Virus record (IMG/VR): IMGVR_UViG_3300027744_000019
Location: 2,295 to 66,294 of that record
Direction: 5' to 3' (one strand)
Origin: a virus
Lineage: Duplodnaviria > Caudoviricetes
Length of the DNA: 64,000 nt
The notes under the pieces are model-generated. The model was not told where the DNA came from, did no database searches, and saw nothing but the letters and a program-made list of their open reading frames with translations. The translations under genes and the position numbers were made by a program. Shown piece after piece: positions 21,101-50,533 of this stretch. The stretch's first letter is position 1, and every line of letters starts with the position of its first letter.

Positions 21101-24100
21101 AGAAACTACACATGGATGCAGAAACTTTATGATAATAGAAAAGATTACTATGAGAATTTAATTAATCAAGAAATAGATCTTCGTGAACTTAACACTCTAT
21201 TAAATAAACTTGCTGATAAGAATATATTTATTAGTGCAGATGATGCATATGAGTTCCAAAGAAATGGTACTTTTCCTAATGAGTTTTTTGACGCAACAAG
21301 AAAAGCAGTAATTAGAGAAGGTCACCCAGATTATGATGAGTACATAGATCTATTTGACAAGGCTCTTAGACTTAAGATGCAAGATCCAAGAACTTATGCA
21401 AGAACTTTGGATGACATGCTTAATGCTGAGTTAATTAATCTTGATGTTGAACTCTCTAGAGAAATTGAAGCTTTACCAAAATCAGAAAGAGTAACTAAGA
21501 AAGGTAAACTACAGTTAAAGAATAACCTAGCTACAATAGAAGAACTCTCTGAGCAGTTAGCTGACGGAGATTATATTGATGCTAAACTTGTACAGGGTAA
21601 AGATGTATCTGAGATTACTGTTTACAAAGATGGTAATGTATTAAAACTTGGAGACAAGAATGGTGAGGAAATTACTATAGATGAATTTAATGGAGGATTT
21701 ACTTCCGGGGATATCTATAGAGTAGAGCTTAAACCAGATCCAGTTGAAGTTAAAAAATTAGAGAATCAATACTCTGAAAGAAAGCAAGATGTTATTAGAC
21801 TTAATATCCAAAAGCTTGAGGATGATGTACAGTTACAACAAAATGAATATGTACGCTTTACTGTTAATTCTCCATATGAATCTATGGATCCAGAGTTACA
21901 AGAACGTTTAAGTAATGCATTCAATAGTTACATAGAAACTGATGAAAAATTAATTGAGCAAGTTTCTGAAATGGAGGATGTTGAGATATTAAACATGCTT
22001 GATGACTTTATAAAAACTAATAAGGTTGCTGCAAATATCATTGAAGAATATAATATAGAGAAACTTGATGAAGCTGCTCAAAGACTTGCTGAAGCTAATG
22101 GTGCTCCTGAAATTGAATTTGAAGGACAAACATATGATCTTGAAACAATGGATCTTTCTGAAGTTAAAGACTTAGCTAAAAAATTAAAGTCTCAATATGA
22201 TAGACTTAACAAGAAACCAAATTCTGAAAAAACAAATGAAGAGAAAGAAACTGCATTAAGAGTGAAGTTTACTCTTGATTTAGTTCAAAGATATATTACA
22301 AAAAATGCTGAAGCTGAAGCAATTGCTAAAGAAGAAACATCTTCTGAAGAAACTCCAGTAGAAGAACCGCAAGCTGAACCTGCACAAAGTGTAGAAGGTA
22401 TCAATAAAGATATTAAAGCAAGAAGAGAAAGAGCTAAGAAAGCTCTTGCTAAAAGGGTTGCATTACTTACTGAAAAGAAAAATAGACTTGCTTCAGATGA
22501 AAGTGCTATTAAAGATACACTGAAACATTTACAAGAATTACTTGACAATAGTGTAGAGCTTACAGGTGTACAACTTGAAGCTGCAATGGGTGATGCTCAG
22601 CAAGTTACTGAAATGATTAAGGCTATTGTAGATTTTAAATACAAGAACCGACCTAAGACTAGAATTCTAAAAAGAGATATTAAAGCTCAAGTAGAAAGAG
22701 AATTTGAATTTGCAAAAAATACACTAGCTAAAATTGCCGAACTTAAGGCAGACCTTAAAGTAGTAGAAGCAAATAAGAAAGATCTTACTAACCAGATCAA
22801 CTATTATAATAATATGATAGCTGATCCTAATCTTAGTATTCTTACTAGGGCTGATATCCGCCAAAAGATTTCTAAGTTAGAAAAGAAACTTACTACAGTA
22901 GAAAAGTTAATCTCTATTCTGAAGAATGCTATTTCTAAATCTGTGGCTTATTTGAAAGAGTATCTAAATGTTTGGAACTCAAGATATAAGACAATGACAG
23001 ATTTCCAAAAGAAAACCGGATTCAAAATTTTATCTAAAGATGAACTTGGTGCTTTAATTAAATCTACCAATGCTAATTCTATTGCAAAAGCTGATTCATA
23101 TGCTGGATTAAAAGCTCAGTATGATAGTCTTGAACAAGCAGTTCTAGAAACTATTGATGATGTAGAATTCTTAGAGAAAGTACAGGATCAAGAACGCACA
23201 AGATTAAGTCAACTTGAAGCGGCAGCTGATAAATACTATGATCAAATTAGATATCTATATGAGTTATTAGATGATGTAGCTGAAGATATAGTAGCTAAGA
23301 ATACTCTTGAGGGTGCAACACCAGGATCTCCTAAAGCTGAAGCAACAGCTGCAACATCAGAAGATTTTTCTGGTGTAACAGATGTAACAGATAAAACAGC
23401 TCCTGTAGCTACATATAGCTTTGTTGATGCAGCAGAGACTGCAGACTTAGATGATATTGTTGGACCACCATCTGATATAGAAGCTAAAAAAGCTGATATA
23501 GAAAGAAGAAGACAAGAAGAGTTAAACAAAACCTTTGACAATAATAAAGGAGCTTTAGAAAGTCAGATTGAGAATGCTGTAAAAAGTAAAGGATGGGCTA
23601 TAAATAATGTATTGTTTCATGGAGGTCCTAAGTTTGACAAGTTCAAAAGAGAGTTTTTTCAAACTGGAGAGTACTCTAACGTAGATATGCGTAGAGTTGC
23701 TCAGTCTATGGGAGTTAGAATTCCTGAAGGAAGTTTTAGCTTTTCTGCTACTCCTATGACAGCTATTAACTATGCATTAACGTATGGAAAAAACAATCCT
23801 ACTTTATACATAGTTAATAATACAAAGGCTATTAATGCTGAGGAGCTGACAGGTAACGCTGAAAAAGATGCTCAAGAGTGGATTATAGATGGTGATAATA
23901 TTTCTGATATAATAACTGTTCCGTTAATTCCAAATGCTGATAAAATTAATGCTAAATATGATGCAGAACTAGCTGCTTTAGAAGAATCTACTCAAGAAGG
24001 TATCCAAGTAGTAACAGAAATTAATCCTGAGTTAAGGTCAATGCTTAACCAAATGGGTTATAAAAATAAGACTATTGATGCTCTTCCTAAGTCTATTCTT

Positions 24101-24505
24101 GAGCGCATTGTTAAAGAAGGTATTCCATCAGAAGAATATGGGTCAAGAGTCATTACTAAATCTCTTGCATCTCAAGCTGCATGGGCAACTCAAGCCACTC
24201 CAGTTACTATAACTGCTATTGAAAAAAGTGGTGTAAAACTTCAAAAAGTTAATGGAACGGAGACTATTTTTCTTACCTTTGATCAACTAGAAAATAGCAC
24301 TGTAGAAAAACAAAAACTACCTACTATGAAAGACACAGAAACAGTTGTTGAGGTCACTCCTGAAGTTAAAGAGTTCTTATCTAAAGGAACTAATGCAGCA
24401 TCCGCATATGCTAAAACAGACATAGACAACTTAGAAGAAACTGTTAAGAATTCTAAACTTGAAGGTTTAGAAAATGATTTATTTAACCTAGAAATTTGTG
24501 AATAA
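18113..24505 (+). CDS. Large ejection-type protein with hydrophobic N-terminal segments, long coiled coil and inserted ADP-ribosyltransferase-like domain
   Basis: 2130 aa. Gly/Ala-rich hydrophobic stretch (FGYTAGIMTEAVAEFAAEALITGVTGGTTGGVLAA), EGIQENLQE motif and heptad-rich region at about 22300-23250. ART-like segment LFHGGPKFDKF...FSFSATPMTAINYA...AQEWII at 23612-23890. Confidence 0.6.
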   Translation: MASENNTDNFSALDSLGPQFGGINRPNIDIQSYKPFEGDRISMPEINFPTAGNYNSPIPSFDSIDRPNLSIEKNIVRPKGKTPRFEDIQSSLHDYGKSILQSNQDQNQYAKMYSYNAGSSGNSYYKRYAAYGQKKFDEIGFTPLRDNEAVFNERTTGWNDFTRMMQYSFFPLAWQGFKSAPKSLFKLLQGDLSGDTEDARLYEEAAGIGQSTKGGVGGFMNNALMNFGYTAGIMTEAVAEFAAEALITGVTGGTTGGVLAARTAANLQRIGKGFSKFTMLDKGGDLFRSSLQALGNSQNARNFYKAANSKVGQFFNPLTNTFEAVADVYKIGKFDNLSGLAALSKTAGGFYRDVKGINLALAEARLEGGMVQNSVYDSLYDKYYEKNGKAPSNEIQKAFEQQAKAASAETIAWNTALIYGSNKITFPNIINPKGGAGKFLRNATEDILEFKNAGKVVFQKAKDAAGKLTKGEFKYLDGSFKTYMETLKDVGFKTATKDFAIKGIKGSVGYFKSNVTEGIQENLQETIAGAMEGYYTDAFNNPAVRSYLYAQGSTTNAMRDKYSYFADKWAEENPFTEKGFETFASGFVMGMFAKPLNKSVEWLSLGYNKIFDAEAFEDYKEKKANYGKQVAAQLNALYSDPKQFFDSKIFNYATQNKIADIRNSGNKKQTLDAEDHALVSAVTSALQTNSIGFFRDNIAAVKEMTPEEIETEFGLEKGKGVEYQQRVDEVLTRVDKISERYEQMESRYPNPVDLSGYEKGTDAYKKAAIFSSAWDVAKANAIFMNESYDNARKRMDSIERTIRSQKPLSKMTDSEVQVLFNPSRLKNEAELLQSELDSQRDTLSPDEISKRERKIEAVKELKKAYDYYFKYNVIDKEAQIEKMRSQGLFDNQVDDEGNAIDPKELEAEARAEIDRQLRVKSKSEENTTRAEADLEVAYKEYLRSIANLNDEDYFDSKAEEAFELLMDNYRLGREANTLSSYVNMLHNPKSFTEHVERNYTWMQKLYDNRKDYYENLINQEIDLRELNTLLNKLADKNIFISADDAYEFQRNGTFPNEFFDATRKAVIREGHPDYDEYIDLFDKALRLKMQDPRTYARTLDDMLNAELINLDVELSREIEALPKSERVTKKGKLQLKNNLATIEELSEQLADGDYIDAKLVQGKDVSEITVYKDGNVLKLGDKNGEEITIDEFNGGFTSGDIYRVELKPDPVEVKKLENQYSERKQDVIRLNIQKLEDDVQLQQNEYVRFTVNSPYESMDPELQERLSNAFNSYIETDEKLIEQVSEMEDVEILNMLDDFIKTNKVAANIIEEYNIEKLDEAAQRLAEANGAPEIEFEGQTYDLETMDLSEVKDLAKKLKSQYDRLNKKPNSEKTNEEKETALRVKFTLDLVQRYITKNAEAEAIAKEETSSEETPVEEPQAEPAQSVEGINKDIKARRERAKKALAKRVALLTEKKNRLASDESAIKDTLKHLQELLDNSVELTGVQLEAAMGDAQQVTEMIKAIVDFKYKNRPKTRILKRDIKAQVEREFEFAKNTLAKIAELKADLKVVEANKKDLTNQINYYNNMIADPNLSILTRADIRQKISKLEKKLTTVEKLISILKNAISKSVAYLKEYLNVWNSRYKTMTDFQKKTGFKILSKDELGALIKSTNANSIAKADSYAGLKAQYDSLEQAVLETIDDVEFLEKVQDQERTRLSQLEAAADKYYDQIRYLYELLDDVAEDIVAKNTLEGATPGSPKAEATAATSEDFSGVTDVTDKTAPVATYSFVDAAETADLDDIVGPPSDIEAKKADIERRRQEELNKTFDNNKGALESQIENAVKSKGWAINNVLFHGGPKFDKFKREFFQTGEYSNVDMRRVAQSMGVRIPEGSFSFSATPMTAINYALTYGKNNPTLYIVNNTKAINAEELTGNAEKDAQEWIIDGDNISDIITVPLIPNADKINAKYDAELAALEESTQEGIQVVTEINPELRSMLNQMGYKNKTIDALPKSILERIVKEGIPSEEYGSRVITKSLASQAAWATQATPVTITAIEKSGVKLQKVNGTETIFLTFDQLENSTVEKQKLPTMKDTETVVEVTPEVKEFLSKGTNAASAYAKTDIDNLEETVKNSKLEGLENDLFNLEICE

Positions 24506-27500
24506 TGGCAATTACTTGCGCACTTGGTCCTAAACATATTGATGCATTAGCAAAAGCAATCTACAAAAAAATGTCAACGCTTCCTCAAGGGGAAGTTTTT
24601 GACATTAATGGGTATATGGATTATCTATACCAGAATATTGCAGAGAAGCAAGGTGTTGATAATGCATTACAATACATGCAACAGTTTCCGTACTTAGCTA
24701 ATATTATTGCAGCTAAGCTTATAGATGTTGTTGAGATTGACCCAAGTGTGAACTTAGGTGCTATGGCTAAAGCTTATAGAAATCCAGATACAGGATGGCA
24801 AGCAGTTAATGCTAGGTTCAATACTGAGCTTACTCCTGAAGCTATGGATGCTTTATCAGACTATGAAGCTAACACTCCATCACAAGAAGATTATGAGGAT
24901 GAGATTCCAGAACCAATTACAGAAGCTTCAGATGATAGATTAAAAGCAAGCACAGCTTTGTCCGGTACATTACAACAGTTTCTTACAAAGAACCCTAATG
25001 ATAAAGCTGAAGATGTAATTGAAACTCCAGATCCAAGTAAGACATATATTAAACTTACTATATCAAAGATTCAAAATATTGCAAAAGATTTAGCAATTGG
25101 TTCTACTATAAATTACCAAGGTAAATTTTTAAGATTAAAAGTTGTTAATCTTGCCTCAGTACCAAGAGATGAAAGAACTCCAGAGACAGATGCTCTTGTT
25201 GGTAGAATGATTGGTATCTCAGATGAGGAAACAAAAAAGAATGATGTTACTCCATTAAATCAGTTATTTGCTCTTGTGCTTACTGATGAAACAGGTAATA
25301 CAATATACTTTAATCAAAATGGAGATGTTACTACCAAACAAAACTTTGGTAAACCTGTGTATCAAATGATGCGGGATGTACGTTTCCAAAACAATAGATT
25401 TACAGTAAGAGACATTTACAATAAAGAAGATCAGATTATTAGTCCTAAAGATGAGGCTATTAATACAATTAGACTTATGGGATATAAATCTATATCTCAA
25501 TATGAGGCTAATGAAAATACTACATTTAAAGAGCTTATTGCTACTATTGATAAACAACAACAAACTCAGTTTAAACAACTATATGACCTTAAGCAACAAG
25601 CAATGAAGAGTAAGGCTCCTTTGTTATTTGTTACAGGAGCTAGTGTAGGGGTATTAAATGAAAGAGTTAAGCAAGATATTAATTTATCTGATGTTGCTGC
25701 AATGCAATCAGATGCAATCAATACTTTTTTAATACTTAATGAGCCTGCTTATGGTTTACGTTCTGGTACTGCCATTATTACTATAAATGGTGAAACATTT
25801 CCTGTTGATAGAACAGATATCCCTAAAGATGTTTCTGAGAAAATAGCACAAGTCTTACAGTCTCAAACTATTAGTAACAACGATAAAATTCTTTTCTACA
25901 ATCAGTTTTTTAATGATGAAGTAGTTAACTTAAAAACTGATAAAGAAAAACAAGATACTTCATTTGTAACTTCAACAAGAAGACATAAATTAGTTAAATC
26001 TAAATCCGGTAAACCATTTTTTGTTTATGCTGATTATACTTTAGCTGAGCTCAATGCTAATAAGCAATTAGTTAATAAAGTAAACTTTGTTCCATTAGAT
26101 GGTAGTCAACAAAGTATTGATAAGATTAAAGAAATTTTAAATGGAGGTAAGGCTTCTGTTAAAGATGGTAATGTAAAAAAGTTTGGTGCTAAACTAAACT
26201 ATATGAATAATAGATTAACTAGTGACTTCTATGACTATGTAGATGGTAAACTAGTTAAGTCTGGTACGTATAAAGATTTTCTTACAAGATTAAATCCTAA
26301 AATTTTAATTTCTAAAACTGCAGGGTTACCGTTATATAACTCATACATTAGATTTGCTATTCCTGATGCAAGATCTTCTCAAGTAAATAAAGCACAAGAA
26401 AGAGCTAAAGAAGATTCAAGATCAGCAGTACGTAAGTTTAAAGATAACATGGTTGAGGTCATTAAAGATGCTGAACCTAAAGCTATTAAAGTTAAAGTCA
26501 CTAATGTAATTGAAAAACAGTATGCTGATAAAAGACCAAGCACTTATAACTATGATGTTGTTATAGAAGGGCAAGAAGGCAAACATAGATTTTATGGTGC
26601 AAAATCAATAGTAAATATAGGAGATACTTATTACTTGACTGTAGAAGATGTTATAGATGGTGGTTTCTTATTTAAAGATACAGTTAAAGCTCGTGTAGAC
26701 TCAAAGAAGAGTGGTGCTCTTGATATGGGTTCACTTGGAGAAAGAGATTTTAAAACTGAAGATTCAAGAGGTATTCCAATTGAAACAGTTGCTGCAGCAG
26801 AAACAGAACAAGCTATAGAATTAGATGAAGTTACACCCGCACCTAATACATTGCCAGAGGATCAAGTTGAAGCTGACCAAGAAGAATATATTAATCCATC
26901 TAATACAACACAACCTTCAGATGGTTCTCCTGTATCAAGAAGATTTAAGAGAGACTATGGTAAATTTAAATTAGATAGATCTGCTGAGTTATCTAATGAA
27001 GTTACACAAGAGCAAATAGATGCTGCAACTACATGGTGGAATAATTCTCCGCTTTCTAAATTCATTTCATTAGAACATGTAGCAAACATTGTTAACTCTA
27101 ATGTATATGCAAGATTTATTGCAGCTGGTTCTGAGCTTCTTGCTGAACAAAATTTAGATGGTAAACTTGGTAAGATCCTTATCAATGAAGCTACTAAAGG
27201 TTCAATGGTAGACACTTACCATGAAGCATGGCACGTATTCTCTCAGTTATTCTTGACAAGAGAAGAGAAATTAAAATTATATAATGAGGTTAGAAATTCT
27301 GATCCTAAGTTTAAAAATCTATCTGCACGCGCTATTGAAGAAGTACTAGCAGAGGACTTTAGATCTTATGCTCTTTCTCCAAAAACTAAAAAAGGTGCCC
27401 CTGTAAGAAATACTTTATTTAGAAGAATACTTAATTTCTTGAAAAAGTTATTTACCGGGAAACAATCTTTAGCTAACCAAATACAACCACAGAAAATTTC

Positions 27501-30500
27501 TACCTATGGTGTAGCAGGAGAGTTGTTTAATAAACTATACTTTGCATCTAACAATCCAGAGTTACTTAATGATTATACTCCATTAGTTGACAATGTTCAA
27601 TGGGACATGCTTAACCGTGGGGTTAGACAACAAGGTGATTATAAAGAAGATGCTCTTAATGATAGAGACTCATTAGATCTTTCTAATGCATTAGATTCAT
27701 TAATCTCAGAAGAAATTGATAATGCTTATCTCTATACTAAAGAACATAATGGAGCTGATGCAAATAAGAGTGGTTCAATTAATATTCTTTTAAAGGATGA
27801 TAATAAAACTGTTCTGTATGAATTCTTAAAAGAAGAACTTCAGGATAGAGTTGATGCCATTAAGGATAAGCTTCCTGTTAAACCAGCTACTCCATTTAAT
27901 ACTTTAAACACTCTTGATAAAATTTCTAAAAATGCAATTGCTGTAATTAAGAATTCTAAAGGAGATGATGAATACTTTTTTCTTAGAACACAAATTGAAG
28001 ACTTTGACAATCTTAACCTAGACAGTAAAAAAGGTGAAAGAGTTAAAGGAGAGATTTACAAAGATGCAGAAGTTATTGGAGACTTTTATACTCACAAATC
28101 AATTAAGGGTGTAGATAAGACTCCTGCAAACATTGTTATTGTAAATAGTATTGAGGAAGCTAGAGCTCAGTTTGAAGCTTATAAAAATGATACAAATTAC
28201 ACTGAGATTATTGAGAACCCAAATGCGGGAACTACTCAACCAGATTTAGACTTTGCTGAACAACAAGATCTTGATAGATTAAGAATTTTCCAAACTGCTA
28301 TTAAAAACTGGAATAATGTAATTAAGTTTCACAAAGAACATTCAGACTTTAACATCATTAATAAAAAAGTTGCTTTACAAGAATCAGATCCAGAATCAAA
28401 TACTGAAGAAGCTAATAATGATAAGAATGAGGAAGGTGGAGAAAATTTTAACTCTAGCGTAGGGGATATTACTCTTCAACAGTTAGCTGATAATGAAGTA
28501 ATCTACATGCTCAAGAGTTTATTTGCTTTGAATAAAGCTGGTAACTATGAGTATGACAGACTTGGTTTCAAAAAGAGAGCAAGTTTTAAAAAGGTGTGGA
28601 ATGCACTTGTAAGATCAACTAACAGTGCCAAAGATCCACAGGAAATCTATAATAGAATACTTGCAGCATCTGCTACGTATCCTGAATTAAAGCAACTTGT
28701 AGACTATAAATTACCTAATCCAGAAGTTGAAGACCATAAGAATGGTACAAGCTTTAGTATTACTACTTCTTTTTGGAATGCATTTAGTCTTCCAAGAGTT
28801 AAGTATATACAATTACTTGTAAATGAAGATAAGTCAGGTACTACTACTGAGGTAACTAATACTTCAATGGATGTTGGTAGTACTAAAAGAAAGTTTACAA
28901 GTTTATTTAAAGCAGAGAAGCCAAATAAATTTATTACTAAAGATAAATTTAATAATAACATCTTAAATCTAAACGCTATTGTTCAAGAGTTTATGGCTCT
29001 TGATGGTACACTGAAAAGCGGTGACAATGCTGAATATAAATTCCTAAGAGCTATTGGATTTAAATATGATGATTTAGGTAAAATTAAAGAAACTTTAAGT
29101 AATCCAGCTAAACGTCAAGAATATAGTATTGCATTTTTATTTAAGGCTGTAAAAGAACTTCGTGATGCGCAGTCATCAGGTAATGCTACAGAAGAAGCTT
29201 GGAAAATAATTAATGCATTTAAGTCAAATCCAATTGAAACTTTATCTAAAGGTTTTCCAGCAGGTGTTGTCGGTGCACCTAATTCTGCTATTTATATAGA
29301 CGGTTTAAAATTAAGCACTGCTGTAAGTAGACTTATTGAGTTGCAAAATAAGTACGGAGCAACAAGTTCTAATTTCAGTGTACTTAATGCAGCTAAGAAA
29401 AGAGTTAATGAGCATACTACTGATAACACATTAACAGTAATTGTTGACGCTCTTAATACTGCTAAAAATAAAACTGATCTATTTAAGCAAGGATCTATTA
29501 CAAGTTACTTAGACCCAAGAAGAAATCCTTGGACTAATAATCTTCAAACATTTAATACATTGTTTGATGCAAGTAATAAAAAGAGAGAAGGTAGATCAAT
29601 TGCAGTTGAAATGTCATCCGGTACTCAAATATCTGGTAAAGATGGTACAACTACAACAGATCTAGATCCAAGAAGTAAATTCATTCAAGAGTTTCATACC
29701 ATGCTTAAGTCTGGTATACAAGAAATTCTTAGACCTGGATCTAAGTCATCTTCATTTGGATGGAGAATAGATGGTGGTATTGAGTTTCCAGGTATTGGTA
29801 AAAAAGATGATAAACATCTTTATATTGATTTAGACACATTCCTCAATCTTAATGATGAGTTAGATGCTATTGAAAAGATAATTCTTCCGTATGTATCATC
29901 TGAAGTAGCTAGAATTAACATCTTTAAAACCAATCCAGAAGCTAAAAACTATATTGGATATAACAAACCTGGCAGAGATGGTAAGCCATCTGGAGAACAG
30001 TTTAATTATTTTGATGGTATATTAACTGATACAACTAAAAAAGAAATTCTATCTAAAGTAAATACAACTGAGATAGATCTTTTAAACTACATCACTACTG
30101 ACCCAGCACTTAAAGAAAAAATTCTTAAGGAAACTCAAAGTTATTTTGAAGCTAAGTCTAAAAAGCTTTATGACTATTTACAAGAAGCTAAATACGTTGA
30201 TCCTAAATTAATGGAAAGATTTAATCTTCCTGGGTTCACTGCAGCACAGAAAGAAAATCTTTTGATGAAGGGTTATATGTATAACTCATGGATTCATAAT
30301 CTAGAGACATCAGTTATATTCTATGGTGATATTGCACAATATGATCATCCTAAACAAGGCTTTCATAAAAGAACTTCCGGTTTAATTTCTAATGGTCGTA
30401 GAGTTAGAACTGATGTTGCTGCTATTAGATATATTAATGAGCAATTTAATGCAAATGGTAAAACCTATGCATCTACACTCCCAGAAAAGTATAATAAATT

Positions 30501-33500
30501 TACATATGATGGCTCATTAAATACTGCAGTAATCCAAGAGATTAGAAGAGATAGTGTTTATCTAGATGATATTAGAGAAGGTCTTACAAAGTTCTATACT
30601 GAAAGAACAAACATGTCTGCCGATGAAGTTAAAAAAACAGTAGATCGTGAAGTAAAAAAATATACTAAAGAAGAAATTAAAGAAGGTGATGGTCAAGGTT
30701 ATATTACATTTGATGCCTATAGAACATTAAAGAGACTTCAGAATAAGTGGGGTGATGAACAAGAAAATTTATTTCAAAAGATTATAAATGGTGAACCTAT
30801 TACAGAACCAATTGATGAATTTTTTCCTGCATATAAATTACAAAACTTTGCATTCTTAGATAATACAGTATTACCAGTAACAGCCTTTCATAAGTTTGCA
30901 TTGTTCCCATTAATTCCTGGTGTAATTAAACCAGGTAGTGATTTTGATAAGATGCATAAGAGAATGTTAGAAGAAAACATTCAGTATCTAACATTTGATT
31001 CAGGTTCTAAAGTTGGCACACTCACTTCAGATGGTGAGCCAGATAGAGCTCATGATGAGAACGGAAGATTTAATGAGTCTGTAGTATTTACTAAAAATAC
31101 ATTTAATGCTGGCTTCCTTAAAGAAGTAACTAATGTGCCTAAAAAGTATAAAGGTAAAGTTGTATTCTCTACACAGTTAAGAAAACTTATTCTTGATGGT
31201 TTATATGAGGAAGGTGCAATGACCATGCCTCAGTATTCTGGGCTAGTTAAAGCATATGAAAATAGTGTAGCATTTAACACTGAGTTGCTCAAAACTGAAC
31301 TAATGGAAGAGATTGGTTATGTAGAAGGTAAAGGTGTTACACAACCAGAAAAGTTCTTAAAAGTAATTAAGGAGAACTTAAGAAGAAAAGATTATCCTGA
31401 ACATTTACTTAGATCTCTTAAAACAAATAGGGACGGTTCATTAAAGTATGACTTGTCTTACTTCTTAGATGCTAAGACAATTGAAGATACTATAATGTCA
31501 ATTGTAGAGAAGAAGTTTGTACGCCAAAAAGTTAAAGGTGAAGCACTTGTACAAGTTGCAAGTTCATTTACCAATAATATGTGGACAACTCCTTCTGAAG
31601 AAGATGTTAAGAAATATATGGGTAGTAATACACTACCTTTTTATTATCCAGGTAAAGATGGCAAAACAAATGCAATGAAAGTTGCTATTGCTATGCAAGG
31701 TGACTTCTTTAAACTATACAATCTTAATCATAATGATGGTCAACCAATTGGAGATATTAATAGGTTAAATGATATGATCAAGAATGATCAGTGGTTAGAT
31801 ACTGATGGTAATAGAAAAGCAATTACTATGACTGCTGTACGTATTCCTGTACAGGGTCTTAACTCTATGGAGTTCATGGAAGTCTATGAATTCTTAGATC
31901 CAGCTGCAGGCTCTCATATTTTTGTACCTACAGAACTTGTAGCTAAGTCAGGTGGTGACTTTGACGTAGACAAGTTAACTACATTTATGCCTAATATAGG
32001 TGAGGATGGTAAAGCTATTACTTCTAATATGACTAAAGAGCAATTCTTTGATGCATATAATAAGGCTTCTAAAGAAGACAAAAAAGAAATGATGAAGCTG
32101 CAGAAGAAAGCTGTTGAAAATAGTTTTATTGAAAACATTAGAGGTATTCTTGAAATTCCTGAAAACTTTGCTTCTTTAGTTAGACCTAATGATACAGCAC
32201 TACTTGAAGAATTATCAAAAGAACTTGAAGATAAAGTAAGTGACTTTGATAAGTATGAAAAAGTAAATGGCGAATCTACAAACTTAGATGGTAAAGGTGA
32301 AAAAATGATTAGCCCTACTACTGTACTTGAGCAAAGATACAATGTAGCTAAACACGGACATAATATTATTGGTAAATCAGTATTAGGTATTGGTGCTAGT
32401 GAGAATGCAATGAATCCTGTATTTAATCAAGCAGGTGTTATTCTACCTAAAAAATATAAAGCTTCAAATTATGATAAAGATTTAGGTAAATTTGTAGAAT
32501 TTGGGGAACCTATATATGACATGAGACTTTTCATGCCGCACAACAAAACTAAAGACGGTAATATTTCTCTTTCTAATATTTATGGTGTTGATGGAGTAAC
32601 TAGAATTGCTGATTTATTTTCACAAGGTATAAATGGTTGGGTTGACGTAGAAGCAAATGAATGGATATTTTATATTCAAGGTAATTATGAGCTTGCACCA
32701 ACTATGCTTTATTTATTTAAATCTGGTGTAACTGAAGAATATGCAGTTAAGTTTGTATCATCTCCATTCATTAGAGAATATGCTGAAGAGTTAAGAAAAA
32801 TTCAAGGGCCGTTTGCTAAATCAATGGGTATAGCAGCAAAAGAAAAACCATATGAAAGATACGAAGCTACTAAAAGAGTTATACAAAGGCACATGCTGCA
32901 ATACCTCAATGCTTCTACTTCTATGCTACAAGCTAATGATCAAATCACAGTATATTTTAAAGAAAGAACTAAAAGAGGATGGGAAGATATTCCTTATCAA
33001 ATGACTTATGGTGAGTTACAAAATAACATAAACAACTCTACATATGATCTAAATTCAATTTCCACAATAGATATTAATTTACCAGGAATTCAAAGAACTC
33101 TTTACGTTAAACCATCTGCTGAGAATGCAACTTATTACAATTCAACATCAAAAGCTAATGAACGGTATGAGAATGGATATTCTCTTGAGTTAATGAATAG
33201 CCTTATTGATAAGAAACCTAGTGAGTTTAACGCTAATGAGACTATAGCTGCTATGGGAATGCTTTTACATTTTAATGAAATTCAAAAGCAAATCCAAGGT
33301 GTAGGTAGGATGAAAAGAAGAGGTAAACCAGACACAACTCTTTTCAGAAACATTCAAGAAATTATTTTAAGAGACCTTGATATAGAATCCTTAGATAACG
33401 ATAGTAAAGTAGATAAAGCATCTAAGGATAAAATCTTTAATGAAAGTATTACAAGTTCATTAGGAGATAAGAAAATTATTGTTGATGTAGTTTCACAAAT

Positions 33501-36500
33501 GCTTGTTCTTAGAAATGGTAACCAAACAACAAACTATATACAAGGGCTTTTAACAAATGCTAAAAACAAAGGTTTAATAGGTGCAAAATTTGGGAAAACT
33601 AATGATGGAATGGTAAATTTTGTTGATGCATTTAAAAACAATATCAGCAACTTTATCTTACAAAACTACTTATCTAACTTTATTGACCCTAAAGGGAACA
33701 TTGTAAAAATTCCTCAGGAGTTTAATGAGATGCCAGTCAAGCTATCTAAGAATCTTTCAACAGATGTTGAGATAAAAGATGGTGTGGTATATGTAAACTC
33801 ACAAAATCTTAGAGAAGACTTTTCTAATAAGAGTTATTTAGATACAGCGCAAGGTCCTAGAAGCTATGCTCAAAGACCAGGACTTGAACCATTTAAAATA
33901 GAACAAGATCCGTTTGCATCTGAAGAAGCATATATCAAGTATGCTATGATCAGAGCATCTTTACAAAGTCAAGGGCTTACGGGAGCTGAGTTAAATAAAA
34001 CAGCTCTTATTGAAGCATTCAACTTTAATGCATTGATGAGAAATAATGATTACTCATATACTAATGAAGTAATTGATGTGATTCAAAAGTATCCTAAGCT
34101 TATTATTGATTTCCCTATCCTAGAACAGATATCTATTTTAAGCACGTCTGCATTTACTGACTTTAATGTTCTTACACTTACTGACAGAGATGCAATAGAT
34201 GGTAAGACAAAAGATGTTTATGCAAATAACATTAGAGCTTTAGGTAATCCTAGAATTCAAAAAGTAGCTGACCCTAAAGAGAATCAAAGAATCAGTAATC
34301 TATTCCAAATGCTTCCTTTGGTAGCAGTGTATCAACACGGTGTGGGTTCTACTCTATATGGATTTGATCAAGTTCTTCCACAAGATATGATCCAGTCTAC
34401 AATGCAGAATGCATCTAATTTATTTAAACTTAACTATTGGAATGATAAAGGCTTAAGTCATGTATTTAATTCTACAGTTAATAAGGAGGAGAAACAATTT
34501 AAAAACTTTGTTTTAACTGAAGCAGAACTAGGTACAGAAGCACCAATACGTGCAACATTTGCTGAGGTAGATCCATTTGAAGAAATAGATAATGAACCGT
34601 TCTTTGCACCTCAACTACAAACAACACCAACTTTAACAAGTTATACAAATCATTCTGGCGGTGCAATTGGAGCAGATACAGTATGGGATAACATTGGTAA
34701 ACAATTTGGAATGGTAACCAATAGACATTATTGGATGAATAATAAAACTCCAAATGGTAATGTTGAAATTTCTAAAGAAGATGCAATTGAAGGTCAGCAA
34801 AAAGTAACTGAAGCTGCAAGAGCAATGGGTAGAATTGAACCTACCTATCAGGTTAGAGATGAAAGATTGATTAGAAACTGGTCTCAAGTTAAATATTCTG
34901 ATGCTGTATTTGCAATAACAACTATGTTAGGTGTAGATGCTGAAATGAATTATGGTAAAAAAGCTAAAATTAGACAAGGTAAAGGAGGCACAGGTTATGC
35001 TATTGAAATGGCAATACAAGCTGGTAAACCTGTTTATGTTTTTGACCAAGAAAGAAAAATGTGGTTTAAAAATATTGATGGTCAATGGTCTGAATCTGAT
35101 GTACCTACTCTTACTAAAAACTTTGCCGGTATAGGCACAAGAGAAATTAATGAAGCAGGTAAACAAGCTATCAGAGATGTCTATGCTAAAACATTAGCTG
35201 AAACACAACCTACACAGCCAATAGATGATCAAACACAAATTGAAACTAAAGCTACAGACCAATACAGATACTTTGGTTCTATGTATACTATTAAGTTACA
35301 AGATGGTATTGGTGTAGATGTAGAAGGTTACAAAGGTAAAGCAGCTGCTAAAGCTAAATTGCTTAATGCATACAATACTGATCCAAATGTAGACCCACAA
35401 AATGGTAGAGCATTTAGAGAAACTCCTACACAGTTAGATGTTCAATCTCAAAACTCTGCAGACACATTTGTATTTGCAGATGGTATTTCTATTAGTGTTC
35501 CGTTCCAACTTAATGCTGAACAACAAGCAGCACTATACAAACTAGAAGACTTCTATAATAACCCAGGAGCTTATGATAATGAAATTACATTATCAGGATA
35601 CGCAGGAACAGGTAAGACAACTATTCTTGGAATCTTTGATAAGTATTTAAAAGAGAAGAGTTACGTTAAACCTATCTATACTTCACCTACTCACCGTGCT
35701 AATGCGGTAACTAAGATGAAGAATCCTAGAGCTAAGGTTAAAACATTACACTCTTTGTTTGGTCTTAACCCTATGCTTAATCTTGAGGGAGACGCATTAG
35801 ATATTAGAGATGTTAAAACTGAATCTTTCAGAAAGCCAGAACTTAACAGAAGAGATGTTATTATTGTAGATGAATCTTCTATGGTTACAAATGAGTTGTA
35901 TGATTTAATTCAGCAGTTCAAAAAAGAGTTAGACCTTAGAATTATTTTTGCAGGAGACAAAGGTCAGCTTGGACCAGTTCAAGATAATACTAAATTAGAA
36001 TCTAAAGTATTTGATGACCCTAAGAATCAAGCTCAACTTACTAAAGTAGAAAGAACGGGTGACAATCCTATCTTATTAAACTCAACTAGAGCAAGAGAAG
36101 GTCAGGACTTTACTTATGTCACTGAAGAAATTAATGGTAATGGTGTAGAGTTCTTAGATACTCCTGATAGATTAAACCAAGTTATGGGTCAGAATCTAAA
36201 AGATATGCAGGAATCTGGTAATATGCTTTACTTTAGAATCCTTTCTTCTCTTAATAAAGATGTAGCTAGAATCAATTTACAAGCTAGAGATATTATGTTT
36301 GGTGAGGAAGCTAAAAAGACTCCTTACATTAAAGGTGATATCTTAATGGGCTATGATAATATTGGTGAAGACTTAATTAACTCAGGTGACTATGTTGTTG
36401 AAGCTGTATCAGAGCTAACTGATATTAAAGTTAGAGTACCTGTTGCTGATTTATCATCTGGATATTTAAAATTCGGAAAAGAAAAAGAAGTATCACTTAA

Positions 36501-37872
36501 AGGTTACTATGTAACTGTTAAAGATATTCTTAATCCTGATAATTTATTTTTAATACCTCTTCCTGCAGAAGGTAATGATGAAGCTCTTACTGAAATTGCA
36601 AAAGGATTATTAGAACTCAAAAGCTATTATCCAAGAGTACAAGGTAAAGACAAAGGCAGACTATTCTCAGAAATTAGTTCTGTAAGCAATCAAATTGTAT
36701 TCAATAAAGACATTAAAGAAAACGGTAGATTCCTTGCTAAGAAAGGTATAGACTATGGTTATGCTCATACTATTCACAAATCTCAAGGAGGAACGTACAA
36801 CAAAGTACTCATCTTTGACGATAGTATCTCAAGCCTAGCAGCAGCTATTGCAGACAAGAGAAAGCTTGGTATGAATGGTCAAAAATTAATGAAAGACCAA
36901 CTCAAGTATGTCGCAATCTCTAGAGCTAGTGAATATGCATATGTGTACAACAGTAAAGATACTGCGGTAGGGGGATTTGATTTCAGAGGTGAGGCACCAG
37001 CAAATATCACTGAGGCAGATATGGATACAGCAGCAGTTGCATCGTTCTCATTTGCTACTGAACAAACTCCAACTCCACAGGTTCAGACTAAGGGAGAGAT
37101 AGAAATGCGCTCAGATAATGTTACTAAAATATTCAGCGGTAACAAGACTGTGACAAATAGAACAAGTCTTATTAATGATGGTAAGTATACAATTAAAGGT
37201 TCTACTGATGTAGTTGAGCTTAAGTATATAGGTAAATCAACAATCAATGGTAATCAAGTTACAATCGTCAATGAAAAGACTAATGCAGTAACTACTAGAA
37301 CTCTTGACCAACTTGCAAAAGCTGAAGGATTCAAAGACGCGGCAGACTTTAGAGCTAACAATAAGTTTAGCACTAACTATCTGAACGGTACTCAGACTAG
37401 ATTTCTTTACCAAGTATCTCCTGTATCTGCGGTATCTGCAGATGCTGAGGCTACCTCAGGTAAAATTCCTGAAACTAACACAGACCTTCAAGACTTTAGA
37501 GATGCAGTTGCTAAAAATAACAACATCTTCCCTAACAAGGTTACTACATCTGCAGGTAGACTTTATGTTCTTAATTCAGATGGATTATATAACTTAGTGG
37601 ATAGTTTAAGCGGAACTGTATTAATGAAGAATATTGACTTAACTACTGGTCAAGTTGGTTTACCAAGTAACATAAATGTCCCTGCAACTAATGCATACAA
37701 AATAGAGTTACTTAACCAAATCCAAGTATTAAAACAACAATATCAATTAGAAGACTTATTAGGTCAATATGGTTATGATATTAAAGACTTGATTGATACA
37801 ATTCAAAATGCTACTACCAAAGACCAAGTTGATGATGTTGCTTCACTTATTAATGAAAAAATCTGTAAATAA
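24505..37872 (+). CDS. Giant virion RNA polymerase polyprotein: zincin HExxH + two-barrel RNAP + SLOG + SF1B (Dda/RecD-like) helicase + ASCH
   Basis: Zincin: HEAWH (27220-27234) with EEVLAEDFR downstream. RNAP: KRTSG (30367), GDGQGY (30685), RIPVQGLNS (31840), GGDFDVDK catalytic motif (31951-31974). SLOG-like: HSGGAIGAD...GGTGYA...FAGIGTR (about 34650-35200). Helicase: GYAGTGKT (35596-35619), VDESSMV, GDKGQLGPV, YAHTIHKSQG, YVAISRA (to about 36930). ASCH-like: IFSGNKTVTNR...AKAEGF (about 37095-37420). Confidence 0.88.
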   Translation: MAITCALGPKHIDALAKAIYKKMSTLPQGEVFDINGYMDYLYQNIAEKQGVDNALQYMQQFPYLANIIAAKLIDVVEIDPSVNLGAMAKAYRNPDTGWQAVNARFNTELTPEAMDALSDYEANTPSQEDYEDEIPEPITEASDDRLKASTALSGTLQQFLTKNPNDKAEDVIETPDPSKTYIKLTISKIQNIAKDLAIGSTINYQGKFLRLKVVNLASVPRDERTPETDALVGRMIGISDEETKKNDVTPLNQLFALVLTDETGNTIYFNQNGDVTTKQNFGKPVYQMMRDVRFQNNRFTVRDIYNKEDQIISPKDEAINTIRLMGYKSISQYEANENTTFKELIATIDKQQQTQFKQLYDLKQQAMKSKAPLLFVTGASVGVLNERVKQDINLSDVAAMQSDAINTFLILNEPAYGLRSGTAIITINGETFPVDRTDIPKDVSEKIAQVLQSQTISNNDKILFYNQFFNDEVVNLKTDKEKQDTSFVTSTRRHKLVKSKSGKPFFVYADYTLAELNANKQLVNKVNFVPLDGSQQSIDKIKEILNGGKASVKDGNVKKFGAKLNYMNNRLTSDFYDYVDGKLVKSGTYKDFLTRLNPKILISKTAGLPLYNSYIRFAIPDARSSQVNKAQERAKEDSRSAVRKFKDNMVEVIKDAEPKAIKVKVTNVIEKQYADKRPSTYNYDVVIEGQEGKHRFYGAKSIVNIGDTYYLTVEDVIDGGFLFKDTVKARVDSKKSGALDMGSLGERDFKTEDSRGIPIETVAAAETEQAIELDEVTPAPNTLPEDQVEADQEEYINPSNTTQPSDGSPVSRRFKRDYGKFKLDRSAELSNEVTQEQIDAATTWWNNSPLSKFISLEHVANIVNSNVYARFIAAGSELLAEQNLDGKLGKILINEATKGSMVDTYHEAWHVFSQLFLTREEKLKLYNEVRNSDPKFKNLSARAIEEVLAEDFRSYALSPKTKKGAPVRNTLFRRILNFLKKLFTGKQSLANQIQPQKISTYGVAGELFNKLYFASNNPELLNDYTPLVDNVQWDMLNRGVRQQGDYKEDALNDRDSLDLSNALDSLISEEIDNAYLYTKEHNGADANKSGSINILLKDDNKTVLYEFLKEELQDRVDAIKDKLPVKPATPFNTLNTLDKISKNAIAVIKNSKGDDEYFFLRTQIEDFDNLNLDSKKGERVKGEIYKDAEVIGDFYTHKSIKGVDKTPANIVIVNSIEEARAQFEAYKNDTNYTEIIENPNAGTTQPDLDFAEQQDLDRLRIFQTAIKNWNNVIKFHKEHSDFNIINKKVALQESDPESNTEEANNDKNEEGGENFNSSVGDITLQQLADNEVIYMLKSLFALNKAGNYEYDRLGFKKRASFKKVWNALVRSTNSAKDPQEIYNRILAASATYPELKQLVDYKLPNPEVEDHKNGTSFSITTSFWNAFSLPRVKYIQLLVNEDKSGTTTEVTNTSMDVGSTKRKFTSLFKAEKPNKFITKDKFNNNILNLNAIVQEFMALDGTLKSGDNAEYKFLRAIGFKYDDLGKIKETLSNPAKRQEYSIAFLFKAVKELRDAQSSGNATEEAWKIINAFKSNPIETLSKGFPAGVVGAPNSAIYIDGLKLSTAVSRLIELQNKYGATSSNFSVLNAAKKRVNEHTTDNTLTVIVDALNTAKNKTDLFKQGSITSYLDPRRNPWTNNLQTFNTLFDASNKKREGRSIAVEMSSGTQISGKDGTTTTDLDPRSKFIQEFHTMLKSGIQEILRPGSKSSSFGWRIDGGIEFPGIGKKDDKHLYIDLDTFLNLNDELDAIEKIILPYVSSEVARINIFKTNPEAKNYIGYNKPGRDGKPSGEQFNYFDGILTDTTKKEILSKVNTTEIDLLNYITTDPALKEKILKETQSYFEAKSKKLYDYLQEAKYVDPKLMERFNLPGFTAAQKENLLMKGYMYNSWIHNLETSVIFYGDIAQYDHPKQGFHKRTSGLISNGRRVRTDVAAIRYINEQFNANGKTYASTLPEKYNKFTYDGSLNTAVIQEIRRDSVYLDDIREGLTKFYTERTNMSADEVKKTVDREVKKYTKEEIKEGDGQGYITFDAYRTLKRLQNKWGDEQENLFQKIINGEPITEPIDEFFPAYKLQNFAFLDNTVLPVTAFHKFALFPLIPGVIKPGSDFDKMHKRMLEENIQYLTFDSGSKVGTLTSDGEPDRAHDENGRFNESVVFTKNTFNAGFLKEVTNVPKKYKGKVVFSTQLRKLILDGLYEEGAMTMPQYSGLVKAYENSVAFNTELLKTELMEEIGYVEGKGVTQPEKFLKVIKENLRRKDYPEHLLRSLKTNRDGSLKYDLSYFLDAKTIEDTIMSIVEKKFVRQKVKGEALVQVASSFTNNMWTTPSEEDVKKYMGSNTLPFYYPGKDGKTNAMKVAIAMQGDFFKLYNLNHNDGQPIGDINRLNDMIKNDQWLDTDGNRKAITMTAVRIPVQGLNSMEFMEVYEFLDPAAGSHIFVPTELVAKSGGDFDVDKLTTFMPNIGEDGKAITSNMTKEQFFDAYNKASKEDKKEMMKLQKKAVENSFIENIRGILEIPENFASLVRPNDTALLEELSKELEDKVSDFDKYEKVNGESTNLDGKGEKMISPTTVLEQRYNVAKHGHNIIGKSVLGIGASENAMNPVFNQAGVILPKKYKASNYDKDLGKFVEFGEPIYDMRLFMPHNKTKDGNISLSNIYGVDGVTRIADLFSQGINGWVDVEANEWIFYIQGNYELAPTMLYLFKSGVTEEYAVKFVSSPFIREYAEELRKIQGPFAKSMGIAAKEKPYERYEATKRVIQRHMLQYLNASTSMLQANDQITVYFKERTKRGWEDIPYQMTYGELQNNINNSTYDLNSISTIDINLPGIQRTLYVKPSAENATYYNSTSKANERYENGYSLELMNSLIDKKPSEFNANETIAAMGMLLHFNEIQKQIQGVGRMKRRGKPDTTLFRNIQEIILRDLDIESLDNDSKVDKASKDKIFNESITSSLGDKKIIVDVVSQMLVLRNGNQTTNYIQGLLTNAKNKGLIGAKFGKTNDGMVNFVDAFKNNISNFILQNYLSNFIDPKGNIVKIPQEFNEMPVKLSKNLSTDVEIKDGVVYVNSQNLREDFSNKSYLDTAQGPRSYAQRPGLEPFKIEQDPFASEEAYIKYAMIRASLQSQGLTGAELNKTALIEAFNFNALMRNNDYSYTNEVIDVIQKYPKLIIDFPILEQISILSTSAFTDFNVLTLTDRDAIDGKTKDVYANNIRALGNPRIQKVADPKENQRISNLFQMLPLVAVYQHGVGSTLYGFDQVLPQDMIQSTMQNASNLFKLNYWNDKGLSHVFNSTVNKEEKQFKNFVLTEAELGTEAPIRATFAEVDPFEEIDNEPFFAPQLQTTPTLTSYTNHSGGAIGADTVWDNIGKQFGMVTNRHYWMNNKTPNGNVEISKEDAIEGQQKVTEAARAMGRIEPTYQVRDERLIRNWSQVKYSDAVFAITTMLGVDAEMNYGKKAKIRQGKGGTGYAIEMAIQAGKPVYVFDQERKMWFKNIDGQWSESDVPTLTKNFAGIGTREINEAGKQAIRDVYAKTLAETQPTQPIDDQTQIETKATDQYRYFGSMYTIKLQDGIGVDVEGYKGKAAAKAKLLNAYNTDPNVDPQNGRAFRETPTQLDVQSQNSADTFVFADGISISVPFQLNAEQQAALYKLEDFYNNPGAYDNEITLSGYAGTGKTTILGIFDKYLKEKSYVKPIYTSPTHRANAVTKMKNPRAKVKTLHSLFGLNPMLNLEGDALDIRDVKTESFRKPELNRRDVIIVDESSMVTNELYDLIQQFKKELDLRIIFAGDKGQLGPVQDNTKLESKVFDDPKNQAQLTKVERTGDNPILLNSTRAREGQDFTYVTEEINGNGVEFLDTPDRLNQVMGQNLKDMQESGNMLYFRILSSLNKDVARINLQARDIMFGEEAKKTPYIKGDILMGYDNIGEDLINSGDYVVEAVSELTDIKVRVPVADLSSGYLKFGKEKEVSLKGYYVTVKDILNPDNLFLIPLPAEGNDEALTEIAKGLLELKSYYPRVQGKDKGRLFSEISSVSNQIVFNKDIKENGRFLAKKGIDYGYAHTIHKSQGGTYNKVLIFDDSISSLAAAIADKRKLGMNGQKLMKDQLKYVAISRASEYAYVYNSKDTAVGGFDFRGEAPANITEADMDTAAVASFSFATEQTPTPQVQTKGEIEMRSDNVTKIFSGNKTVTNRTSLINDGKYTIKGSTDVVELKYIGKSTINGNQVTIVNEKTNAVTTRTLDQLAKAEGFKDAADFRANNKFSTNYLNGTQTRFLYQVSPVSAVSADAEATSGKIPETNTDLQDFRDAVAKNNNIFPNKVTTSAGRLYVLNSDGLYNLVDSLSGTVLMKNIDLTTGQVGLPSNINVPATNAYKIELLNQIQVLKQQYQLEDLLGQYGYDIKDLIDTIQNATTKDQVDDVASLINEKICK

Positions 37873-40800: not shown

Positions 40801-41288
40801 AAGCAGGTATTGGAACACAATGGAGTAATCTTAGTGACTTTGAAAAAGCACAAGTAAGAAGAACTATGACAGAAATAGGTTTCATTCTAGCTTTATCTAT
40901 GTTAATTTGGGGATTACTCATGCTTGTAGATGATGATGATGAAGAAGAAACTAAAAAAAGCTATGGTTATAACTTCTTGTTCTATCAAGCAATTAGACTT
41001 AGAAGTGAGACTCAACAGTATTTACCAGGTCTTGGTTTTAAAGATGCCTATAGGATTGTTAAGTCTCCAACAGCTATGACAAGTACTGTAGATAATTTTA
41101 TTAGATTTACAGATCAGTTTCTATTTACTTGGGATGATGAAAAACTATCTTACAAAAGAAAAACAGGTATTTGGGAAAAAGGAGATAATAAATCTTGGGC
41201 CTACTTCTTAAAGTTAATTGGATACACAGGAAATAATATTACTCCTGATCAAGCAGTTAAAAACTTCCAGGCAGCTCTGAATAAATAA
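37872..41288 (+). CDS. Putative ejection/virion protein with C-terminal transmembrane segment
   Basis: 1138 aa, helical. Hydrophobic segment IGFILALSMLIWGLLMLV (about 40875-40930) followed by DDDDEEE. TAATG-coupled to the RNAP gene and last gene of the + strand block. Confidence 0.55.
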   Translation: MRIDRCPIESDPEWQKILSETGGDRIEARKRWEAEEFDKDDKRNEYKEIEEDGDATRKAEPTRKEMEEDKVTRLVENIRIYLEKKIKVLERSNIYKQKEKIKETKDLMNILKELDGIESINEFVKDAFNKSKIAHKHFNYTINRIQNGELSRKEAIQELVAMQDFANRYSIINEIQKADVLKFFSTPVDIEAMSARDEKTLTPQEMLSFTKSVTDNIKTKFIAEGIPLMADFLLDYKPMGVDERIKKEVYQLQQKIEVIKNNPKNSPEFIAKKTEEIQQRIDTILNFTLDKKSMIEVLEKATKDTTIFDYLTAPLISSPDSALGLFARAVKTEMETARLEDIALRKRAAKAFNEYKASVPALMRDNPAKFNEGLYETISVPRTDPETGEYVRTNEGRIILDKRVAFVQKYDQSKFHKEKAKFFESIGKKPDNLTDAREWFAKVTAWFDANTIPKPKEQIREILKQKELEKNRGLLTEDEYQDWRRENLKVDENGKIIGYKYGKAGELVMPADKYINAKWNALYDASGNPLNPKGKYHKFLVEEYLKSQENLPDIQKPGYVIPSIEKTDGERLLAKGIVDLAKNRATELVKVKAYDVEYGVDLGLGEEGNKFLPVYFVQPMAEGDISLNLMRSVLMFGSMSNNYNAMNGIYNEINLFKEIIGDREIAETNTKGIPIVDSIAKRLGYDRYLKTHGSNFSSRRVNDFIDMVVYGESKARFEVAGIAVDKIIDKMMNFSAISTLSLDLLKGMNNNLQGNLQLLIEAASGEFFDMKSWTRGKKDYWTTIPQMLSDFGKFTPESLMGQIIEQYDPMQGEYKDQFGKVVTGSVANKLFSTDTIFFNLHFGEHEIQVSTLFAMLNSRTVKDNESGQEISLMEAYKKYGVDEIKNKTDFTEEMRLDVQNKIHALNKRMHGIYNNFDKSVAQKHTLGRLALMYRKFLVPSYTRRFKKLGMDQELGAMTEGFYRTFWNAFAKDLITFKAGIGTQWSNLSDFEKAQVRRTMTEIGFILALSMLIWGLLMLVDDDDEEETKKSYGYNFLFYQAIRLRSETQQYLPGLGFKDAYRIVKSPTAMTSTVDNFIRFTDQFLFTWDDEKLSYKRKTGIWEKGDNKSWAYFLKLIGYTGNNITPDQAVKNFQAALNK

Positions 41289-50522: not shown

Positions 50523-50525
50523 ATA

Positions 50526-50533
50526 CAAATATA
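50526..50533 (-). promoter_or_regulatory. Bacteroidota -7 promoter element (TAnnTTTG) directly upstream of the homing endonuclease
   Basis: - strand TATATTTG-TAT-ATG, an exact match to the TAnnTTTG consensus in the short spacer. Confidence 0.5.

Follow-up and report, generated by a model that had tools for sequence, protein, structure and literature searches.

How an RNA polymerase that enters the cell with phage DNA could start on a double-stranded template, and whether a helicase carried in the same chain has any part in this, are the questions raised by one gene in a 64,000-nucleotide (nt) stretch of DNA from an uncultured tailed phage (Caudoviricetes; positions 2,295 to 66,294 of IMG/VR record IMGVR_UViG_3300027744_000019), the whole of which is called the window below. 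The gene encodes a protein of 4455 amino acids (aa) in which a polymerase core resembling gp66, the virion RNA polymerase of crAss-like phage phi14:2, is followed by a predicted superfamily 1B (SF1B) helicase of the type of phage T4 Dda. Here, we examine this protein and its relatives. The architecture is one of beads on flexible linkers, with intact catalytic sites, and we think it rather likely that the protein is a polyvalent injected polymerase carrying the helicase as an accessory module. Its parts are listed here in window coordinates:

24505..37872, + strand: whole polymerase-helicase gene, 4455 aa; homologues share the start MAITCALG
24505..26904, + strand: conserved N-terminal region (aa 1-800), without recognized family; matched in 112 of 120 homologues; ratio of non-synonymous to synonymous substitution rates (dN/dS) 0.26-0.30
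26902..27804, + strand: tentatively zincin-like region (aa 800-1100), with HEAWH at aa 906-910 (nt 27220-27234); dN/dS 0.02-0.13
27802..30654, + strand: conserved middle region (aa 1100-2050), matched in 120 of 120 homologues
30652..33204, + strand: predicted two-barrel RNA polymerase core (aa 2050-2900), gp66 homologue by AlphaFold2 model, Foldseek, and tblastn
31957..31971, + strand: catalytic DFDVD (aa 2485-2489), recognized by motif; G-x-D-x-D-x-D-K is invariant in 26 aligned sequences
33202..34524, + strand: conserved post-core region (aa 2900-3340), matched in 120 of 120 homologues; end of the shared backbone
34582..35244, + strand: swap slot (aa 3360-3580), with Q/T/P-rich linkers at both borders
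34639..35055, + strand: SLOG/DprA-like Rossmannoid domain (aa 3379-3517), tentative, with the motifs HSGGAxGxD ... GGTGYA
35467..36984, + strand: Dda-type SF1B helicase (aa 3655-4160), motifs I-VI intact, Walker A lysine K3704
36982..37869, + strand: conserved C-terminal tail, or C-tail (aa 4160-4455), in 58 of 120 homologues, with or without helicase; predicted local distance difference test (pLDDT) 60-83

The initial annotation had described a single open reading frame (ORF), free of stops and frameshifts between polymerase and helicase, with the catalytic DFDVD at nt 31957-31971 and seven SF1B motifs about 1200 aa downstream. All of this proved correct. The ORF listing and the translation give an uninterrupted frame at 24505-37872 (+), 4455 codons plus the stop, with no stop across its 13,365 nt; DFDVD corresponds to aa 2485-2489, each of the seven motifs was located, and Walker A lies 1213 aa after DFDVD. 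The source is a 66-kb IMG/VR record with a CheckV completeness of 56%, and megablast against phage records returned no match. The exact 4455-aa product is present on 23 contigs (ENA, JGI, Logan, and NCBI assemblies), and the same domain layout recurs in ten further protein clusters with core identities of 77-89%; the join is therefore not an assembly artefact, and a chimeric assembly or hidden stop, the danger named at the outset, is excluded as far as assemblies can show.

Searches of the whole protein against Pfam, PHROGs, and, with phmmer, the Protein Data Bank (PDB) left the polymerase unrecognized and found only the helicase and the DprA-like part. With tblastn, aa 2001-3332 matched polymerase genes in 73 records of crAss-like phages, with identities of 22-25% and E-values down to 1e-18. 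An AlphaFold2 model of aa 2050-2900, made with 25 homologues (pLDDT 82, predicted template modelling score 0.74), was matched by Foldseek to phi14:2 gp66 (6VR4_A) over 842 columns (E 7.2e-21, probability 1.00, TMq 0.58). This was the sole PDB match with E < 0.001 for the core model, followed by QDE-1 and bacterial beta'. Ile or Val at the fourth position of DFDxD is a signature of the crAss type (10.1101/2020.03.07.982082), and the window's DFDVD has Val at this position. Fold match and signature support the view, already taken in the initial annotation, that the core is a gp66-like virion polymerase of the crAss type, and, as the 851-aa model aligns to gp66 over nearly its full length, two double-psi beta-barrels in one chain are implied.

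Ahead of the core, Y-H-E-x-W-H and a downstream E..AE.FR are nearly invariant (alignment A2), and the HEAWH region is 43% identical to the HEAFH region of the phage genome cr118_1, to which we return below. Neither Pfam nor PHROGs gave a match for this region (aa 800-1100). The motif, and the assignment of phi14:2 gp65 as a zincin (10.1101/2020.03.07.982082), tentatively suggest that it is zincin-like.

The helicase, in turn, is intact over its full length. Motifs I, Ia, II, III, IV, V, and VI are all present with their catalytic residues, namely GYAGTGKT (starting at aa 3698), SPTHRA (3727), DESSMV (3789), GDKGQL (3817), TKVERT (3846), HKSQG (4091), and YVAISRA (4135), which together span aa 3698-4141 (nt ~35596-36927), and they are invariant over 19-21 homologues of 30-97% identity in two alignments. 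Matches to Pfam (AAA_30, E 3e-18; AAA_19, E 1e-15; PIF1, E 1.5e-6; also UvrD_C_2), to PHROG 325 ‘Dda-like helicase’ (E 1.8e-70), and, by phmmer, to T4 Dda (3UPU, E 1.6e-11) are far beyond what chance would be expected to give. The model of aa 3665-4150 aligns with 407 of the 439 residues of T4 Dda (VIA Z 25.9, root-mean-square deviation 3.9 Å), VIA covering Dda residues 1-439, and Foldseek agrees (3UPU_A, E 1.3e-21, TMt 0.75). The claim of an intact SF1B helicase has thus held up, down to a full-length Dda architecture. From family membership, the module would translocate and unwind 5'-3' in an ATP-dependent manner.

A codon alignment of the gene with three relatives gave dN/dS values of 0.165-0.25 for the helicase, 0.16-0.18 for the polymerase core, and 0.16-0.18 for the C-tail, so that purifying selection spans the junction of polymerase and helicase. 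Judged by these ratios, the helicase appears to be functional and is maintained by selection, under constraint equal to that on the polymerase core. The model of aa 3340-4455 is confident only for the helicase and moderately so for the C-tail, which a T/P/Q-rich linker of low confidence connects to the helicase; in the fold searches that covered the C-tail (Foldseek, VIA), the match lists were filled by helicase hits.

An intact and constrained helicase may still be optional, and here the relatives are informative. The polymerase core has at least 530 length-matched homologues and matches 1467 cluster representatives; a locus search with the single protein yields 3-5 close relatives, and an alignment-based scan widened this set. 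Domains after the backbone were counted in the 120 best homologues, throughout which aa 1-3340 is kept. A helicase follows the backbone in 28 of them. Other modules found after aa 3340 are a 2OG-Fe(II) oxygenase (2OG-FeII_Oxy_2, AlkB-like) in 17, ART-PolyVal in seven, cpYpsA in six, an AAA_33/Zeta_toxin-like kinase in five, and NADAR in four. Many of the 120 have merely 200-400 residues past the backbone, and about half end in the window's ~290-aa tail, helicase or not. Module order varies as well (helicase, then SLOG, in P0017-22), and relatives with ~50% identical cores lack the helicase or have unrelated enzymes in its place. The region past aa ~3340 is, on this comparative evidence, a recombination-prone cassette zone, with the helicase as an optional, swappable add-on.

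The swap slot offers a view of this zone at short range. Relative to L021, the closest relative of the window protein, identity is 10-40% inside the slot, where the two are non-homologous, and 95-100% in its flanks (up to aa 3360 and from aa 3580); in L022 and L023, a further 234 residues follow aa 3570. Such differences are fresh cassette exchanges at the Q/T/P-rich linkers. The alternative cassettes of L021, L022, and L023 had no match in Pfam. In the window protein, the slot holds the domain at aa 3379-3517, which matches PHROG 768 ‘DprA-like’ (E 5.5e-7) and reaches Pfam only below threshold (cpYpsA, E 0.086). A seven-sequence profile of this domain gave no sequence match in the PDB, and the corresponding part of the model is of low confidence (pLDDT < 50); a homologous domain in phage genome cr109_1 is annotated as DprA-like. 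These matches tentatively suggest a SLOG/DprA-like domain. In L082 and L083, two more distant IMG/VR loci, a SLOG-like domain stands near the N-terminus (aa 397-868) and the helicase is C-terminal, so that the same modules occupy different ends of the backbone.

Beyond the 120 homologues, the fusion is again found in a minority of crAss-like polymerase genes: the helicase is present in 8 of 150 representatives of 50%-identity clusters and in 6 of 80 IMG/VR loci. A tree of 255 cores has 32 helicase-bearing tips, at least seven state changes, and a helicase-less root. PHROG 325 was also searched against 29 long IMG/VR records of the polymerase lineage. Three gave strong matches (one fused, two free) and two gave marginal ones (E ~5e-6, with fewer than 80 profile positions each); no Dda-like helicase was found in 24 of the 29, in 16 of the 19 rated at least 90% complete, or, by the same search, in the complete genomes of phi14:2, DAC15, and cr109_1. 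The expectation of one Dda-like helicase per genome, either fused or free, was accordingly rejected. The helicase is dispensable across the family. With 16 of 19 near-complete relatives and phi14:2 lacking it, it is not a general device for starting on double-stranded DNA (dsDNA), and the suggestion that the fusion answers how such polymerases initiate there does not hold as a general one (DAC15, too, lacks the helicase). Nor, given its absence from most near-complete relatives, is it a universal replication factor that changed address.

The two free helicase genes among the 29 long relatives lie at 89432-90874 in G018 and 113742-115019 in G028 (L104, L105), the latter just past the polymerase locus and on the strand opposite to the polymerase gene. 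Their matches cross stops (one TGA and one TAA; one TAG), although each lies inside an open frame, of 531 and 621 aa respectively.

We also asked how far the fusion was already on record. Three of the tblastn polymerase matches fell in ORFs annotated ‘DNA helicase’ or ‘DprA-like’. Polymerase-helicase fusions are present in two Suoliviridae genomes, cr50_1 (QOR58058.1, 4774 aa), annotated ‘DNA helicase’, and cr118_1 (QOR58373.1, 4946 aa), annotated ‘DNA helicase’ or ‘exonuclease V’. That the fusion was uncharacterized, as first supposed, remains true of the literature insofar as we found no paper that discusses it, the 2021 crAss genomics paper, the 2023 review, and the gp66 preprint included; the fusion as such, however, was already in RefSeq/GenBank with cr50_1 and cr118_1. 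The polymerase and its neighbours are known to be fused into huge polyproteins in some crAss phages (10.1101/2020.03.07.982082). The window gene is a divergent further case of a giant crAss polymerase-helicase protein already present in databases.

In many contigs of ~97 kb, separate ORFs divide up the same region: one for the polymerase (~3100 aa), one that is small or encodes a LAGLIDADG protein, one for cpYpsA and helicase (1300-1740 aa), and one for ART-PolyVal. In two Suoliviridae-like cases, L016 (8652-9587) and a 97.5-kb JGI contig, a LAGLIDADG or small ORF separates the polymerase and helicase ORFs, with TAG = Q in L016. No Rfam intron was found in the L016 gap, so an intron-split single gene is unproven there.

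In a helicase tree rooted on T4-type Dda, a single clade with SH-like support of 0.97 unites 83 helicases on crAss polymerase or cargo ORFs, including those of the window lineage and cr50_1. Free helicases, from Intestiviridae, Crevaviridae, and two window relatives, group apart, together with the fused ones of cr118_1 and P0249 (support 0.91), which implies at least two captures. Repeated joining of such helicases to crAss polymerase or cargo ORFs fits some functional link, and the long-lived tie of one helicase clade to the block of injected proteins is the best argument that co-delivery pays off.

The setting of the window gene is that of crAss-like phages. It is central among three ORFs that close a block of co-oriented giant genes, the block opening with a match to ‘virion structural protein’; the gene overlaps each neighbour by 1 nt, its start running into the upstream stop and its stop into the downstream start. 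The two neighbours are:

18113..24505, + strand: upstream ORF, 2130 aa, same block, without family match
37872..41288, + strand: downstream ORF, 1138 aa, final gene of the + block, ahead of the divergent replication module

This module, encoded on the other strand, includes DNA polymerase, PD-(D/E)XK-type exonuclease, ATPase, primase, and DnaB-like helicase. Elsewhere in the giant-gene block, a 1269-aa ORF (5482-9291, +) has a SET (lysine methyltransferase) match at aa 38-80 (E 3e-8) and a phage lysozyme domain at aa 344-447 (E 4e-4), and thus represents another multi-enzyme, possibly injected, virion-block protein. Two ORFs on the - strand, GIY-YIG-like (49782-50528) and HNH (50567-51748), are probably homing endonucleases; in the replication module, they lie between the genes for the ATPase (48601-49770) and the primase (53315-54349). 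The minus block opens with a gene (41452-42072, -) that hits PHROG 1644 (‘minor coat protein’) at E 9e-32, with a weak match to endonuclease V as well; the coat-protein label looks misplaced inside a replication block.

Among known systems, phi14:2 is the natural reference, as its gp66 (6VR4) was shown to transcribe early genes in vivo. The window protein resembles gp66 in DFDxD with a branched residue at the fourth position, in the core fold, in the tie of an HExxH region to the polymerase, and in being encoded by a giant late, or virion-block, gene beside the replication module. It differs in that gp66, of 2180 aa, is separate from gp65, whereas both are joined in one 4455-aa chain in the window; moreover, the phi14:2 genome has no Dda-like helicase, and core identity in the structural alignment is only 16%. 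Closer in layout are the cr50_1 and cr118_1 proteins, which have in one frame an HExxH region, a GSDFDIDK core, extra domains, and a C-terminal Dda-type helicase, that of cr50_1 being 36% identical to the window's and in the same helicase clade. However, their cores are only 22-25% identical to that of the window, and the chains stop shortly past the helicase and lack the 296-aa C-tail; in the tree, the helicase of cr118_1 falls into the clade of the free ones from replication modules, implying a separate capture. In the sister genome cr109_1, the DprA-like domain is present and the helicase is missing. With T4 Dda (3UPU), the helicase module shares all motifs and the full-length architecture, although Dda, at 439 aa, is made early as a free protein that acts at forks and origins and the window module, at 20-22% identity, is embedded in a virion-block polyprotein.

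Further removed are the polyvalent injected proteins, such as the virion polymerase gp50 of phage N4, with its zincin and add-ons, and the methylase-helicase DarB of phage P1, whose helicase module is injected (Iyer et al. 2017, PMC5512222). The likeness lies in the combination of a virion polymerase with a zincin-like domain (tentative in the window protein) and variable enzymes (e.g. ADP-ribosyltransferase [ART]) and in the delivery, predicted for the window protein, of a helicase with the DNA, and ART-PolyVal itself is found in the cassette zone of window relatives. On the other hand, the N4 polymerase is T7-like rather than two-barrel, the helicases described in that study are SNF2 or UvrD-like rather than SF1B/Dda, and crAss-type polymerases lay outside its coverage. 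QDE-1 of Neurospora, the second-best structural match of the core, is a single-chain two-barrel enzyme, as the window core is predicted to be; it prefers single-stranded DNA (ssDNA) and needs the help of a helicase and of a protein that binds ssDNA. Its helicase QDE-3, by contrast, is a separate protein of the RecQ family (SF2, 3'-5') in eukaryotic silencing, and the analogy is one of function only.

As in polyvalent proteins, a polymerase, a helicase, and a SLOG-like domain stand in one chain, and the architectures of orthologues vary. On the reading that we favour, of a polyvalent injected polymerase, the backbone would run from the N-terminal region through the zincin-like HExxH region to the gp66-like two-barrel core, and the cassette zone would here contribute the SLOG/DprA-like domain and a complete Dda-type 5'-3' helicase, predicted to be catalytically competent, before the C-tail closes the chain. 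From gp66 and the polyvalent precedent, we infer that the protein is packaged and ejected with the DNA as gp66 is, in which case all modules, helicase included, would reach the cell with the first DNA. As an accessory factor of the early phase, the helicase could then load where the entering end is frayed or single-stranded and clear bound host proteins or open the duplex. This may aid the ssDNA-preferring polymerase, which would nonetheless work without it. The patchy distribution of the helicase suggests a host- or defence-dependent benefit, like that of the AlkB-like, NADAR, ART, kinase, and cpYpsA modules.

Several points weigh against this reading. The zincin and SLOG assignments are both tentative and come without a Pfam match; the part given to the helicase is deduced from context; and the loose first-pass filter of the genome search could miss weak free helicases, the same search having readily detected Dda-like helicases at 25% identity elsewhere. 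That one helicase clade has been associated with polymerase or cargo ORFs recurrently and over long times might just as well point to a coupling tighter than that of an accessory. Such coupling is what the initial annotation proposed, namely an integral, self-unwinding machine in which the fused helicase feeds ssDNA template in cis or reels the genome in and which, where present, is needed for early transcription of dsDNA. It is in keeping with this proposal that gp66 works far better in vitro on ssDNA or denatured DNA than on dsDNA and that QDE-1, its eukaryotic relative, needs the helicase QDE-3 and RPA (10.1101/2020.03.07.982082). Helicase and polymerase are also equally constrained, one helicase clade has been kept on polymerase or cargo ORFs across very distant lineages with at least one further independent fusion, and in the window, cr50_1, and cr118_1 the helicase is always C-terminal to the core, ~1100-1300 aa past DFDxD. 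We nevertheless regard the integral machine as unlikely: cores ~50% identical to that of the window do without a helicase or have unrelated enzymes in its place, 16 of the 19 near-complete relatives and phi14:2 have no Dda-like helicase anywhere, though gp66 of the latter works in vivo, and the helicase is tethered by long low-confidence linkers in a position that shifts relative to SLOG.

Slightly less probable again, in our estimate, is a relocated replication or recombination helper, that is, a Dda-like helicase moved from the replication module, released by proteolysis, and acting later at forks and origins as T4 Dda does. Intestiviridae and Crevaviridae do have a free helicase of ~490 aa, of the same broad family, beside UDG and DNA polymerase; cr50_1, cr118_1, and the 66-kb record (itself 56% complete) each have a single Dda-like match, the fused one; two fused helicases group with free ones; and the polymerase block abuts the replication block. 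Yet most near-complete relatives have no such helicase, contrary to one per genome, and most fused or cargo helicases fall in a clade apart from the free ones (support 0.97). A replication factor would be unexpected in a late-expressed virion-block gene unless its early delivery is of value, and the window already encodes a DnaB-like helicase, a primase, and a polymerase. An artefact of assembly or annotation (chimeric contig, missed stop, frameshift, or intron) is brought to mind by the related 97-kb genomes, which divide the region into polymerase, LAGLIDADG or small, and helicase ORFs. We give it next to no credence, considering the identical product on 23 contigs of independent assemblies, the absence of a stop in 13,365 nt, the ten clusters of the same layout, and selection across the junction.

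For the crAss-like phages, the finding bears on how early transcription may be equipped. A sizeable minority of crAss-type polymerases carry in cis a selected, intact, predicted 5'-3' helicase, so the idea of a helicase-assisted start on dsDNA can be tested on natural variants. A bolder possibility, which we hold to be improbable, is that in helicase-bearing lineages the Dda-type module docks on, or works jointly with, the co-injected polymerase as a self-contained, ATP-driven initiation device, and that helicase-less relatives rely on end fraying, supercoiling, or host factors instead. If it were true, pairs with and without helicase that share ~50-90% identical polymerases would give a direct handle on the dsDNA start of crAss-type polymerases. 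There is also a warning for annotation, as the labels ‘DNA helicase’ and ‘exonuclease V’ on crAss ORFs of 4000-5000 aa conceal a polymerase. More broadly, the C-terminal end of the polymerase is a hot-swappable zone for helicase, AlkB-like, NADAR, ADP-ribosyltransferase, kinase, and SLOG modules, and the injected polymerase may serve as a delivery scaffold for effectors of the first minutes of infection, much as polyvalent proteins do in P1 and N4-like phages.

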